From: Candidatus Saccharimonadales bacterium
GTDB taxonomy: Bacteria; Patescibacteriota; Saccharimonadia; Saccharimonadales; UBA4665
Length of the DNA: 64,000 bases
Assembly: GCA_035479955.1 (NCBI GenBank)
Contig: DATIIE010000015.1
Span: 2,268-66,267, forward strand
Reading direction: 5' to 3'
Below the pieces are notes generated by a model that saw only the letters and a program-made list of their open reading frames with translations, did no database searches and was not told the origin of the DNA. The position numbers and the translations under genes were made by a program. Of this stretch, positions 7,430 through 11,643 are shown in pieces. The number at the start of each line of letters is the position of its first letter. Within the stretch, counting starts at the first letter, position 1.

Positions 7430-7777
7430 ATGCCCATCATTAAGTCAGCAAAGAAGCGCGTTCGCACCAGCACCAAAGCAGCTGTGCGCAACAGCAAAAC
7501 CAAGCGCAGCCTGAAGGGCGCGCTGAAAGCTTTCCACAAGGCCATCACAGGTGGTACTAAGGAAGTTAAGAGCCTTGGAAGCAAGGCCCAAAGCGAGCTG
7601 GACAAAGCCGCTAAAAAAGGCGTGATGCACAAGAACAAAGTTGCCCGCAAGAAGAGCCAGTTGGCTCGCGATGCCAAGGCTGCTGCCACTGCCACTCCTA
7701 AGGCTGTTAAAAAGGCTCCGGCAAAGAAGCCGGCTGCCGCTAAAAAGCCTGCTGCTAAGAAAACTGCCAAAAAATAG
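7430..7777 (+). CDS. rpsT: 30S ribosomal protein S20 with Lys/Ala-rich C-terminal tail
   Basis: MPIIKSAKKRVR...RN...K, LDKAAKKGVMHKNKVARKKSQL. Confidence 0.96.
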   Translation: MPIIKSAKKRVRTSTKAAVRNSKTKRSLKGALKAFHKAITGGTKEVKSLGSKAQSELDKAAKKGVMHKNKVARKKSQLARDAKAAATATPKAVKKAPAKKPAAAKKPAAKKTAKK

Positions 7778-7792
7778 GCAATTCTAGCATTT

Positions 7793-7827
7793 AAAAAACG
7801 CCCTGCCCGCGCGGCAGGCGTTTTTTT
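7793..7827. terminator. Intrinsic terminator after rpsT
   Basis: AAAAAACGCCCTGCC-CGCGC-GGCAGGCGTTTTTTT, a GC stem flanked by A and T tracts. Confidence 0.85.
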
Positions 7828-7860
7828 ATTGTTTCCCTTTAGTTCATGGCTGTAAACATA

Positions 7861-7889
7861 TTGCCTATTATGCTTATAGATGCTATAAT
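7861..7889 (+). promoter_or_regulatory. Near-consensus extended -10 promoter of the orphan at 7899
   Basis: TTGCCT-N17-TATAAT with TGn; ATG lies 9 nt downstream. Confidence 0.7.
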
Positions 7890-7898
7890 AAAAGCGTA

Positions 7899-9152
7899 AT
7901 GACTGATGGACCACTCCCCCGCCACGCGCATGAATTAGCCGCCCCACTCGAAGCTGGGACATCCGGCACCCATGGCGCAGAGGCCTTACCACTTGTACTC
8001 CAGGCCTCTGGCGCTGTTGCTGATGTTATTCACGCCCACGACATGGACACCCTTCGCTTACTCGCCGCTGGCCAGTTGCCTGAAGGCTGGGACCCTCGCT
8101 TCGCAGAACACAGCGGCGTTATGGCCATCGCAGCAAATGAATTCCTCACCAAAGGCGACCGCAACACCACCATCGTAGACGGCGTAAATGTCCACGTTGA
8201 CGATGCCCGCGAAGCCGAACAACGGCGCGCATATGCACAAAGCGGCGGCGGCAGCGAAAACGGCGTTGCCGGCAGCTTGCTGGCAGGCGTAGAAAAAGTT
8301 GCCGTTGCACCTGCCGACGACCACCTGGACGCTATGGGCGCAACGGCCATGGACGGTATACTAGCCCGCTTGCGTAGCGCATCCACAACCAACGAAGCGC
8401 AGCCTGGGGCTAGCGAGCCAGCAGCACCTGCCCCGCTGCCAAAACGCCCAGTCGCCGCCCCTGCCCCTCATGGTGAGGCTACGCAAATAATCGCGTGGCG
8501 CCCTCAGCAGCAGGACCCGGCCGGGGAAGCCACTCAAATAATTAAACGCCCGGCCCACTTAGGCGACGTCACCCAGAAAATAACCCCGCCTGCGGCAGAA
8601 GCTGACGCTGAAACGCGCCGCCTGCCACGTAGTGCAATCGCAAGCGTGCTGGGACGCACCGGCACGGGCGGCCGCCACCGCCGTAGGGTTGGCGAAGGCG
8701 AACGCGTTATCTTCACCGACGCCCGCGACACTAACCTGCCTGGCGCAGGCGATGCCGCAACGCAGCGCCTCAACGTAAACAGCGGCGCTGGTGAACAAAC
8801 CGTGGTAATTAACGCTCCACACAGTGAAAAAACAGGTGAAAAGACAGTTGTGATCAATGGCGGCGGGCGCCATGCTGAAGCTGAAAAAACTACCCCTCTG
8901 CAGCGCCCGGTACGCCTGGGTGAATTCCCAGAACCAGCCTCCCACCCTGACCCTGACGCAACCGCTGTACTGAGGGCTAGCCTGCACGCCATAGGCGAAC
9001 GCACGGGCCTAGTAGACCCTGACGCCAGTCCTGGCGAAAATACAGTGATGATAACTACCGCTGGTTCTGAATCAACGCGGCGCATTGCACCGGTTGTTGG
9101 TGAAGTAACCCAGATTATTCCTGGCCAAATGCCACGGAACTTTAACCAGTAG
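7899..9152 (+). CDS. Orphan, largely disordered protein with 12 acidic-x-T-x-x-I/L motifs
   Basis: 417-aa ORF with its own promoter. The repeated motif is conserved at protein level with synonymous differences between copies. Confidence 0.85.
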   Translation: MTDGPLPRHAHELAAPLEAGTSGTHGAEALPLVLQASGAVADVIHAHDMDTLRLLAAGQLPEGWDPRFAEHSGVMAIAANEFLTKGDRNTTIVDGVNVHVDDAREAEQRRAYAQSGGGSENGVAGSLLAGVEKVAVAPADDHLDAMGATAMDGILARLRSASTTNEAQPGASEPAAPAPLPKRPVAAPAPHGEATQIIAWRPQQQDPAGEATQIIKRPAHLGDVTQKITPPAAEADAETRRLPRSAIASVLGRTGTGGRHRRRVGEGERVIFTDARDTNLPGAGDAATQRLNVNSGAGEQTVVINAPHSEKTGEKTVVINGGGRHAEAEKTTPLQRPVRLGEFPEPASHPDPDATAVLRASLHAIGERTGLVDPDASPGENTVMITTAGSESTRRIAPVVGEVTQIIPGQMPRNFNQ

Positions 9153-9157
9153 TAGTC

Positions 9158-10072
9158 CTACAGCGTCAGCAAGTACAGCTGCAACGCTTCATCGGCGTCC
9201 ATGCTTTTGGTTTTGAGGCTTAAGTCGAGCTCCAGCAGCTCGGCTATTTTTTTGCGCAAATTAGGAAGCGTTAGGCCACGGGCCAGGCCCTGGCTTTTAC
9301 GCACCACAAACGGGTTCAATTTGGCAGCGCGGGCAATGTCTTCTGCGCTACGGACGCCTGCAGTTTTAATCACAGCCAGTACGTGCAGCTGCCAGGCCAG
9401 CATGGCGATGATTGCCTGCGGCTCAACCTTCAGGGCACGCTGTTCACGGTACAGTTCAAAGGCACGCTTGGTGCGGCCGGCAAATGCGGCGTCAAGCAGT
9501 TCAAATACAGTGCTTTGCGGCGTCGCCTCGGTAAGCAGTTCAATTGTTTGGCGGGTAATGTGCAGGTCGTAGGCCAGTAATTTGTCGAGCTCCTGCTGCA
9601 ACAGCTGCTGGCTTGCGCCAATACGGTCAATAATAAGGCGTGCGTCGTTTTGGGCAAGCGTGCCATTGTGGGCCTGGGCATATTCTGCTGCCCAGCGGGC
9701 CAGGCCCGAAGCGTCCAGGTCGTTCAGCTCGCGGAAGTCAGTCTCTTTTTTGAGTGTTTTATAGTAGCTCAAACGCTTGTCGAGCTTGGGCTCTACGATT
9801 ATCAGGTCGGTGGTGTCAGCCGCCTCTTTGAAAATTTCGGTGATGTGTTCGGCAAACGCCTTTTGCTTGCCTGGCTCGCGCAGCACCACCATTTTACGGG
9901 CGGTCAGGAACGGCATGCTGGCGGCGCTTTCACGCATGCGGCTAGCGTCGTGTTCATCGCCGTCCAGGCGCTCCAGGCCCATATCGGTATGTTCCTGCAC
10001 AAAAGCAGACACCAGCTTCTTGAGCTCGCGCGAACGCGCAAAATCGTTACTCCCGGTCAACGTCACAATCAT
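9158..10072 (-). CDS. holA: DNA polymerase III subunit delta
   Basis: MIVTLTGSNDF, SMPFLTARKMVVL, ELDKLLAY, TVFELLDA. Start at 10072 is preferred over 10078 from -10 spacing. Confidence 0.93.
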   Translation of the reverse strand: MIVTLTGSNDFARSRELKKLVSAFVQEHTDMGLERLDGDEHDASRMRESAASMPFLTARKMVVLREPGKQKAFAEHITEIFKEAADTTDLIIVEPKLDKRLSYYKTLKKETDFRELNDLDASGLARWAAEYAQAHNGTLAQNDARLIIDRIGASQQLLQQELDKLLAYDLHITRQTIELLTEATPQSTVFELLDAAFAGRTKRAFELYREQRALKVEPQAIIAMLAWQLHVLAVIKTAGVRSAEDIARAAKLNPFVVRKSQGLARGLTLPNLRKKIAELLELDLSLKTKSMDADEALQLYLLTL

Positions 10073-10115
10073 GTTCATCTATGATAACACTGTTCGGGTG
10101 CAGCGTGCGCGGATG

Positions 10116-10991
10116 CTACAGGTGGCGCTGCTGGCAATGCGGGCAAATATGCGTACCGCGGCCGGCCACGCGCAGTTTCACAATAGGTGTGCCGCAGCGC
10201 GGGCATGGCTGCCCTTCGCGGCGGAACACGTTCGCAAACCCCAGATAGCTGCCGCGCTTGCCTTCATGGTTAACATAGTTGCGGTCGGTGCTGCCGCCTT
10301 TTTCAATGCTTAAACGCAGCACGGCCTGCAAGCTTTTGAATAGCTCCTCTAGCTGCGGTGCGGGGATATCGGCCACGCGTGTTTGTGGGTGGATTTTGGC
10401 GCCCCACAAACTCTCGTCGCTATAAATATTGCCGATACCGGCCACCACGGTCTGGTCGAGCAGCACGGCTTTAATGGCGCTGCTTTTGCGGCGCATAAGG
10501 CGGGTTATGAACTGTTCGGCGGTAAAATCGGCGGCGAGCGGCTCAGGGCCTACTTTTTGGAAAAAATCGAGCTGCTCTACCTCCGGTGTTGGCAGCAGCC
10601 GCATCCAGCCAAATTTGCGCTGGTCGTTAAAATACAGCGTGCTGTGGTCGGCAAAGGTGATAATTACGCGGGTGGATTTGTCGGGCAGCTCGCCTATTAA
10701 GCTGCTATTTGGGTGGCCCGCGCCAAAATGCTCTTTCTGGCTGCGAAACACCAGCTGGCCGGTCATTTTTAAATGCGCTACTAACGAGTAATCGCTGGAA
10801 AGGTCGATGATCAGCACTTTGGCGCGGCGGCGCACCGCCGTTACTGTGGCGCCCTGAAGGAAAGTTTCCACATCGGCGGGCGCGTTTGGGAAACTTTTCG
10901 GCCAATCGTGGGTGGCGCTGGCTATGGTGCGGCCGGGCAGCAAACCGGCCAGGCCGGCGCGCACCGTTTCTACTTCTGGCAATTCGGGCAT
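10116..10991 (-). CDS. mutM: Formamidopyrimidine-DNA glycosylase MutM/Fpg
   Basis: True start MPELPEVET at 10991 (track ORF is over-extended); HLKMTG, D.RKFG, LLDQ..VAGIGNIY, CPRCG...C..CQ zinc finger. Confidence 0.97.
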   Translation of the reverse strand: MPELPEVETVRAGLAGLLPGRTIASATHDWPKSFPNAPADVETFLQGATVTAVRRRAKVLIIDLSSDYSLVAHLKMTGQLVFRSQKEHFGAGHPNSSLIGELPDKSTRVIITFADHSTLYFNDQRKFGWMRLLPTPEVEQLDFFQKVGPEPLAADFTAEQFITRLMRRKSSAIKAVLLDQTVVAGIGNIYSDESLWGAKIHPQTRVADIPAPQLEELFKSLQAVLRLSIEKGGSTDRNYVNHEGKRGSYLGFANVFRREGQPCPRCGTPIVKLRVAGRGTHICPHCQQRHL

Positions 10992-10995
10992 GAGT

Positions 10996-11643
10996 CTATT
11001 GTACGGCAGGTGCGGCGGCCTGCACCATATCAGTGGTGGCGGCCTGCATTTCCTGTGTGTATGTCGTAAAGAGGACATCGGCGGCAACAACTTGGGCAAC
11101 TTCTGTATTGCCGAGCTCCACCTGGCACGCTAAAGCGGCGGCGGCAACCAGACGCTGGTCTAAATCAACGAATTCTGGCGCGGGGGTTGCCAAGTGTTGC
11201 TCAAGCATACGGCGCTGGCGGTCACGCATCTGCTGCTCGTCGGATAATTTTACCCGCGGCAGGATATGGGCGCGGCGCAGTACGCGCGTGCAAAAATCAC
11301 TAGCTGCAGCTAAACGCCCTTTTTCCAGCAGGCCGGCAACATTGGTGGCATCCAGCGACGATTCTATCCGCGCGGCGCGCGGCGCATTCACCACCGCGTC
11401 CAGGTCTACCGATACAGCCATGCGGTCAACTGTTTCCCAGTCGGCGCGCTGGGCAGCCACAGTGGCAGTGGCGGCCACTAAATCAGGGTCGATTTCCTCT
11501 GTTAACACATTGCCGTAGTCACGGAGTGCTGCAGAAACGGCAGCCCAGCGCGTCCATACGCTGAGCGGCGCGGCCGGAGATTCGTAGGTAGGCGGCTGCA
11601 CACGCCCAAACCGTGATGCCGTCCTATATGGTATAGTTGTCAT
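10996..11643 (-). CDS. Orphan helical protein
   Basis: 215-aa ORF exactly filling the gap between mutM and 11740; no recognised motif. Confidence 0.7.
   Translation of the reverse strand: MTTIPYRTASRFGRVQPPTYESPAAPLSVWTRWAAVSAALRDYGNVLTEEIDPDLVAATATVAAQRADWETVDRMAVSVDLDAVVNAPRAARIESSLDATNVAGLLEKGRLAAASDFCTRVLRRAHILPRVKLSDEQQMRDRQRRMLEQHLATPAPEFVDLDQRLVAAAALACQVELGNTEVAQVVAADVLFTTYTQEMQAATTDMVQAAAPAVQ

Follow-up and report, generated by a model that had tools for sequence, protein, structure and literature searches.

A disordered orphan protein with a Thr-centred motif array in a soil Saccharimonadales epibiont: a candidate decoy for actinobacterial kinase–FHA signalling

The P0001 gene and its motif array

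The window analysed here is a stretch of 64,000 nucleotides (nt) of contig C15 (DATIIE010000015.1) from a Candidatus Saccharimonadales bacterium, whose genome assembly (GCA_035479955.1, G000 below) holds 1.18 Mb in 133 contigs and is 97% complete. Read recruitment pointed to soil and freshwater-sediment metagenomes as its source environments. Saccharibacteria and other Patescibacteria live on host bacteria, and their manipulation of the hosts is largely unexplained; we know of no host-directed protein effector defined in Patescibacteria. Between rpsT and the convergent holA, which is followed by fpg, the window carries an open reading frame (ORF) for an orphan protein of 417 amino acids (aa), P0001, whose predicted disordered tail holds an array of 12 short Thr-centred motifs. 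The coordinates of all these features are collected in Table 1.

An intrinsic terminator behind rpsT separates the P0001 gene from rpsT transcription. With only 9 nt between the end of a sigma-70-type promoter and the ATG, a leaderless or almost leaderless mRNA is probable. The promoter and the start context are kept before the orthologues in L043, L044 and L045, and they are kept as well before a non-alignable gene at the equivalent site in G008.

The motif was counted as [DE within −1 to −3]-T-x-x-[IL] and compared with 20,000 composition-preserving shuffles. Residues 185–417 contain 12 motifs against 0.69 expected, and none of the shuffles reached 12 (P<5e-5), while the N-terminal 184 residues contain one against 0.4 expected and show no excess. 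The 12 heptads that a first-pass annotation of this DNA had listed were all found at their places (Table 1). They take up 12 of the 22 Thr residues of the tail, and GERTGLV, with Val at +3, comes in addition. When every genomic ORF of 70 aa or more was scanned (4,793 in all), P0001 had 13 motifs (3.1 per 100 aa) and the runner-up 7 in 1,212 aa; the array is unique in G000.

The spacing of the motifs is irregular, from 11 to 49 residues. The two GEATQII copies are encoded as GGTGAGGCTACGCAAATAATC and GGGGAAGCCACTCAAATAATT and differ synonymously, as the annotation had stated. No DNA tandem repeat was found in the array by Tandem Repeats Finder and a repeat finder, which gave only 20-nt matches of 70–80% at the three G-E-x-TQII copies. 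Recent tandem duplication is ruled out as the origin of the array by this absence of DNA-level repeats, which also means that the motif copies are old and are kept at the peptide level.

Table 1. Coordinates of the P0001 gene, its parts and other features named in the text (positions in the window)
Feature	Position	Strand	Basis
rpsT	7430..7777	+	
rpsT intrinsic terminator	7802..7826	+	6-bp GC stem plus T-run
Promoter TTGCCT, 17 nt, (TG)CTATAAT, extended −10	7861..7889	+	10/12 matches, TG present
Coding sequence of orphan protein P0001	7899..9152	+	ORF call; family alignment; population variants
Small three-helix N-terminal domain (predicted), residues 31–88, ending in invariant GDRNT	7989..8162	+	AlphaFold, predicted local distance difference test (pLDDT) 70–88
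Conserved helix G(I/L)L(A/E)RLR, residues 149–165	8343..8393	+	family alignment, model
Predicted disordered tail with 12 G-E-x-T-[QVR]-x-[IL] motifs, residues 192–407	8472..9119	+	motif count, logo, pLDDT 30–40
Motif 1, GEATQII (T195)	8472..8492	+	motif scan
Motif 2, GEATQII (T212)	8523..8543	+	motif scan, repeat analysis
Motif 3, GDVTQKI (T225)	8562..8582	+	motif scan; position kept in P0002, P0003
Motif 4, DAETRRL (T239)	8604..8624	+	motif scan; kept in P0002, P0003, P0004
GGRHRRR, GRH mini-motif, residues 257–263	8667..8687	+	string search
Motif 5, DAATQRL (T288)	8751..8771	+	motif scan
Motif 6, GEQTVVI (T301)	8790..8810	+	motif scan, orthologue alignment
Motif 7, GEKTVVI (T316)	8835..8855	+	motif scan, orthologue alignment
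GGRHA, second GRH mini-motif, residues 322–326	8862..8876	+	string search
Motif 8, AEKTTPL (T331)	8880..8900	+	motif scan, orthologue alignment
Motif 9, PDATAVL (T355)	8952..8972	+	motif scan; kept in P0002, P0003, P0004
Motif 10, GENTVMI (T382)	9033..9053	+	motif scan; kept in P0002, P0003, P0004
Motif 11, SESTRRI (T393)	9066..9086	+	motif scan; kept in P0002, P0003, P0004
Motif 12, GEVTQII (T404)	9099..9119	+	motif scan; conserved, but P0004 has Ala for Thr
Conserved C-terminal tail PGQMPRNFNQ (family consensus PGQMPRxF)	9120..9149	+	family alignment
Antisense ORF, 183 aa	8534..9085	−	
holA	9158..10078	−	
fpg	10116..11099		
Orphan gene, 215 aa	10996..11643	−	
P0007	46803..47963	−	

The protein family and purifying selection on the motif

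Five relatives of P0001 were obtained from an exhaustive scan of 1.8e9 representatives, namely P0002 (415 aa, 44% identity), P0003, P0004, P0005 and P0006, with identities of 24–44%. A word-indexed search of 5.8e9 proteins returned only P0001 itself and the orthologue of G016, a scan of genome contigs gave no relative of P0001, a profile search of 201 genomes gave no further family member and tblastn did not find the family in phages or plasmids. P0002, P0004, P0005 and P0006 are all encoded between rpsT and holA on Saccharimonadales contigs; the contig of P0003 is only 1.8 kb long, with unidentified gene fragments on both sides, and is too short to show its neighbours. The family is read as orthologues of one lineage-specific gene.

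The AlphaFold model, built with the family alignment, is confident only at a three-helix unit of residues 31–88, and beyond about residue 124 the pLDDT falls to 30–48, so that a tail of about 230 residues is predicted to be disordered. Foldseek against the PDB returned nothing below E=1 for the whole protein or the N-terminal domain. Searches of Pfam, NCBIfam and PHROGs with the family members matched nothing, apart from a meaningless PspA hit with E=6. The alignment shows invariant residues G86, D87, R88, N89 and T90. The elements common to the family are an N-terminal LAAGxLPxGW...GDRNTT, the helix G(I/L)LARLR, the strings EETRRLSxxAIAxALG and RPVRLGE and a C-terminal block, GExTVMxTTxGxESTRxI..EVTQxIPGQMPRxF.

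Between 4 and 13 motif copies were counted per member in P0001–P0006, all above the shuffle expectation. In the logo of 57 instances, position −3 is Gly in 19 and position −2 is acidic in 44 (Glu in 35, Asp in 9), and further Asp or Glu occurs at −3 and −4. The central Thr is followed by Gln, Val or Arg at +1 (15, 13 and 11 instances), by Val, Arg or Gln at +2 (15, 12 and 7), by Ile or Leu at +3 in 48 instances (26 and 22; Val in 6, Met in 3) and by Pro at +4 in 13. Among four long orthologues the conservation is 0.67 for the Thr, 0.64 for +3 and 0.44 for −2, compared with 0.35 for the linkers and 0.29 for the other positions inside the motif. Half of the P0001 motifs (6/12; T225, T239, T355, T382, T393 and T404) are conserved in position. 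The frame [DE]-x-X-x-x-[ILM] occurs 56 times in the family tails; 40 of these have Thr as X, an enrichment of 7.9-fold above background, and Ser and Val were each seen once.

Purifying selection on the Thr, on the acid at −2 and on Ile or Leu at +3, while the linkers drift, is thus shown. Because the Thr is conserved and is almost never exchanged for Ser or Val, the selection acts on a Thr-centred linear motif. This bears out the first-pass claim that the peptide motif in the disordered tail is what is selected: it is kept in the orthologues, it is Thr-specific and the linkers between its copies diverge.

The gene is intact, with no indels or frameshifts, in four metagenomes, and three of its four population variants lie at third codon positions and are synonymous, the fourth being S348P in a linker. 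A 183-aa antisense ORF overlaps the motif array; we argue that it is an artefact of GC content, because the motif conservation and the third-position variation favour the forward frame. That the P0001 ORF is itself spurious or in decay, lying in a GC-rich spacer and owing its motif excess to composition or to old duplications, is highly improbable. Its orphan status, the long antisense ORFs across it and its location in a variable hot spot, empty in many members of the genus, would suit such an origin, but the conserved promoter and start context, the shuffle test, the largely synonymous variation and the distant homologues, which share the domain and the motif columns and are syntenic where this was looked up, argue against it. 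P0001 is a genuine protein, encoded behind a strong promoter and specific to its lineage of soil Saccharimonadales epibionts. Very probably this disordered, fast-evolving protein is functional and acts through its multivalent Thr-centred motif array.

Positional analogues occupy the rpsT–holA site in G008 (296 aa) and G007 (182 aa). They cannot be aligned with P0001 (that of G008 not beyond the motifs), and they start with a GLLERLR or NLLEKLQ helix similar to residues 149–165 of P0001. The analogue of G008, a singleton without relatives in the search, carries DQPTEVI, DERTQVV, LEQTQVI, SQATQVI and SENTVVI, and that of G007 carries GDTTARL and GDTVKLV.

A mini-motif of the form (G/P)RH(A/D/R) occurs in one to three copies per member, both in P0001 (at 7920–7928 and at the two places in Table 1, GGRHRRR and GGRHA, already pointed out in the first-pass annotation) and in P0002–P0004 and P0006. 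The variants in the family are GGRHRRR, GGRHA, VGRHAA, RGRHAA and PGRHDA. It resembles a GRHR(K)P string that some actinobacterial cell-wall proteins have close to their N-termini.

Kinases, phospho-readers and a possible host-directed interpretation

The family motif was compared with the rules described for mycobacterial signalling. For the six studied Hanks kinases of Mycobacterium tuberculosis the acceptor is Thr, accompanied by hydrophobic residues at +3 and +5; a hydrophobic side chain at +3 from the phosphothreonine (pThr) is selected by the FHA domains of Rv1827 and Rv0020c (PMC3138270). Most kinases of this organism phosphorylate better where acidic residues lie at −2 to −5 (Prisic et al., cited in PMC6030727), and PknA-dependent sites have upstream acids, Leu or Val at +3 and basic residues at +4 (PMC7164672). 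The fit to this kinase consensus and to the FHA +3 rule, which had been claimed from the sequence, holds: the family motif agrees with all three main rules, having a Thr and not a Ser at its centre, a large hydrophobic residue at +3 and an acid between −2 and −5. PknA and PknB also prefer Gln at +1, as Kang et al. reportedly found in 2005.

No match to Pkinase (PF00069), FHA (PF00498) or PP2C_2 (PF13672) was found in the assembly of G000, in searches whose positive-control genomes did return matches, and neither the kinases nor the FHA proteins of its genus relatives had a tblastn match in G000. The PknB/FHA set of its own by which, in the first-pass annotation, the motif would have been endogenous rather than mimicry was therefore not found in this genome.

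A host-directed function, as kinase substrate and FHA sponge, is proposed tentatively as a possible reading of these sequence data. The G-E-x-T-[Q/V/R]-x-[I/L] motifs would be acceptor sites for Hanks-type Ser/Thr kinases and, once phosphorylated, pT-x-x-I/L ligands for FHA domains. The partners would be kinases and FHA proteins of the presumed actinobacterial host, as the assembly of the parasite encodes no Hanks kinase, FHA domain or PP2C. P0001 would thus act as a multi-site competitive substrate and as an FHA sponge, and host kinase-to-FHA signalling would be blunted, for instance an Esr-type anti-epibiont alarm or the control of cell wall and division. We infer the phosphorylation of the motif Thr, the binding of its pThr form by FHA domains, the entry of the protein into the host and the pathway targeted there. 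The reading is narrowly preferred because three kinase/FHA rules are obeyed, because the Thr is not exchangeable for Ser or Val and because reader and eraser are missing from the parasite; its rivals are kept in play because a delivery route was not found, because a kinase site is unassembled and because the Glu at −2 is position-specific.

The points that weigh against this reading concern expression, delivery, the motif rules, the parasite's own kinases and the shape of the motif core. The gene sequence was found in no RNA run searched, and its expression is presumed. P0001 has no signal peptide or transmembrane segment (maximum Kyte–Doolittle hydropathy over 19 residues 1.25), and no WXG100 (PF06013) or VirB4 (PF03135) match was found in G000 or relatives, other routes not being surveyed. 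To our knowledge no protein translocation from Saccharibacteria into their hosts is established. Delivery, put forward in the first-pass annotation, is purely conjectural and the weakest link of the decoy idea. PknA sites are reported to have Pro at +2 and basic residues at +4, features that do not stand out in the family motif.

As to kinases, relatives that bear the family do encode kinase-fold proteins, an LRR-Pkinase in G016 and G008 and P0007 in G000 and G008. LRR-Pkinase proteins of about 420–460 aa are encoded downstream of a glycosyltransferase in G016, G008 and G021. The orthologous glycosyltransferase of G000 (C105, 4556–5701) ends 63 bp before the contig end and the site syntenic to the LRR-kinase is the last 60 bp of C105, so an orthologous LRR-kinase could lie in an assembly gap. 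P0007 gave only weak matches, to Kdo/WaaP, Bud32 and RfaY models (E of 1e-3 to 1e-5), and judging from these it is a distant Kdo/Bud32/RIO-like kinase fold and not PknB-like. P0007, the kinase to which the first-pass annotation pointed, was rejected as a PknB-type kinase, and it does not track the family, with homologues in G006 and G008, weak ones in G019 and G025, and none in G016.

An alternative is that the array serves inside the epibiont, where atypical kinases of the parasite itself, of the LRR-Pkinase type or P0007, would use it as a substrate with many sites or as a scaffold. All three of the strongest array-bearing genomes examined have at least one kinase-fold gene: G016 the LRR-kinase, G008 the LRR-kinase, a P0007 homologue and a 174-aa FHA protein, and G000 P0007, whereas G007, with a weak array only, has neither kinase type. 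P0007 retains VAVK with the catalytic Lys, HGDxxxxN and the Asp of the DFG position; the LRR-kinase site of G000 coincides with a contig end, and the lack of an export signal in P0001 suits an internal role. The weakness is that no single kinase tracks the family (G016 lacks P0007, and no LRR-kinase was found in the assembly of G000), that an FHA reader is missing from G000 and G016 and a PP2C from G000, G016 and G008, and that the nearest families of P0007 act on small molecules or are atypical. On balance this endogenous role appears unlikely.

The LRR-Pkinase proteins are signal-less and carry HGD..N and DFG/DLG (L050 1327–2607, −; L039 808–2184, +; L051 1318–2586, −). The sole canonical Hanks kinase found in the genus, in G001 (L036, 1072–2361, −), has HRDVKPPN and DFG and a disordered C-terminal tail with strings of the Thr-x-x-Leu type, among them DEPIHTLRE and RQRTIRLGA; RQRTIRLGA recalls the family element RPVRLGE.

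As to the motif core, the sharp preference for Glu at −2 and Gly at −3, together with the beta-prone T-[QVR]-[VRQ]-[IL], suits docking that needs no phosphate. Each G-E-x-T-x-x-I/L would then be a short beta-strand added to the sheet edge of a partner, as in LC8 clients or TonB boxes, and P0001 would serve as a flexible scaffold on which numerous copies of a single partner, from the parasite or the host, assemble without any kinase. The core is strongly beta-prone (Thr, Gln, Val, Ile and Arg; TVVI, TQII, TVRI), the Glu and Gly are position-specific instead of forming a diffuse acidic patch, G000 gave no kinase, FHA or PP2C match, the spacing within the disordered tail is irregular, and other conserved elements (RPVRLGE, AIAxALG, PGQMPRxF) suggest a hub with several partners. 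A pure strand-former, in turn, would tolerate Ser or the beta-branched Val and Ile, which hardly ever replace the Thr; the three-feature match to the kinase/FHA consensus of the presumed host clade would be a coincidence, and no partner was identified. Such docking would explain the sequence data nearly as well as phosphorylation would, and we hold it to be possible, with almost the same weight as the host-directed reading. The TonB box itself, with its similar wording (E-T-V-V-I), was rejected, the organisms being taken as monoderm and without TonB context.

The idea that P0001 is a WXG100 protein and a substrate of a type VII secretion system, which came from a GW turn in the N-terminal domain, was likewise dropped, with no PF06013 match and no fold match of that domain.

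Among known systems, the actinobacterial Hanks-kinase substrates that are read by FHA domains (GarA/OdhI, the Rv1747 linker, EsrG1) are like P0001 in their disordered Thr site, upstream acids and hydrophobic +3. On phosphorylation their sites become pT-x-x-I/L/V ligands of FHA domains (PMC3138270, PMC6030727, PMC7164672; EsrG1 in PMC13622651), and multi-site linkers can give multivalent assemblies (Rv1747 condensates are reviewed in PMC8573418). The genomes of these substrates encode kinase, FHA protein and phosphatase and the substrates usually have one or two sites, whereas P0001 has 12 and none of these partners was detected; there is no sequence homology, and the sites of P0001 are putative.

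EPIYA-type effectors such as CagA share with P0001 the disordered tail and a repeated short motif of varying copy number (4–13 in P0001–P0006). Their motifs are phosphorylated by host kinases and recruit host phospho-readers, and the copy number tunes potency (PMC5408210). They are, however, Tyr-based, read by SH2 domains in animal cells and delivered with a known secretion system and signal, in contrast to the Thr-based P0001, its presumed bacterial host and the delivery route that was not found. Multivalent clients of LC8 resemble P0001 in Thr-Gln-centred beta-strand motifs that are irregularly spaced along a disordered chain and vary in number. LC8 is eukaryotic and P0001 bacterial, and the T-Q-T anchor of LC8 clients does not hold in the P0001 family, in which Gln at +1 is found in only 15 of 57 instances and +2 is Val, Arg or Gln, Thr not being common there. 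P0001 thus differs from the known phospho-motif tails in being Thr-based, in the absence of a detected Hanks kinase or FHA domain from its genome and in belonging to a bacterium that parasitises bacteria. It has no sequence or fold relative of known function. Only a demonstrated delivery between bacteria, together with jamming of FHA proteins, would set it apart as a new category.

One specific host pathway has been described that could be jammed by a decoy with many Thr sites. Schaalia senses Saccharibacteria via the Esr pathway (Wang et al., bioRxiv, September 2026; PMC13622651), in which the kinase EsrE1 phosphorylates Thr152 in a disordered region of the FHA protein EsrG1, leading to Esx-dependent defence. 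Esr systems are widespread in Actinomycetales, and one epibiont strain avoids triggering EsrG1 phosphorylation via unidentified strain-specific genes (PMC13622651). The strains of that study are oral and outside this soil lineage, and it gives no hint of P0001. For P0001 as a counter-defence decoy the events would be the following: the protein is passed into the actinobacterial host, its 12 sites absorb the Esr-type alarm kinase, the pThr forms occupy the FHA output protein and the Esx-based response is silenced. This particular scenario is improbable.

Of the decoy interpretation in the first-pass annotation, the selection on the motif and the consensus fit stood; the lack of a detected PknB/FHA set in G000 and the described host kinase-to-FHA pathway against epibionts add to them. 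Delivery was not supported, and P0007 is not a PknB-type kinase. The host-directed reading, if true, would make P0001 the first bacterial effector against Ser/Thr-kinase/FHA signalling of another bacterium and a Thr/FHA counterpart of the EPIYA effectors. With 12 selected Thr-specific sites of the matching type, in a genome without detected Hanks kinase, FHA or PP2C, it is a concrete and cheaply testable candidate for epibiont evasion of a host alarm. Even if phosphorylation fails, P0001 would be a clean bacterial case of a disordered protein in which motifs are kept while the rest turns over, and useful for the study of multivalent linear-motif hubs in bacteria.

Variable genes around the rpsT–holA site

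The rpsT–holA spacer corresponds in the window to 7778–7898 and 9153–9157. In most species of the genus no gene is found at this site and the gap is just 4–80 bp. Across genus and order this hot spot carries orphan genes that are unrelated to one another (L015, L022, L024, L025, L029, L032). A second family is shared by G021 and G004, 32% identical and with a common LWAP..I.QRVG motif, and G018, G009, G024 and G036 each have another orphan in this place. Downstream of fpg the window carries a further orphan of 215 aa without Pfam match, and beside fpg in the related contig L043 the equivalent place is taken by a gene for 210 aa, similar in length and also without Pfam match.

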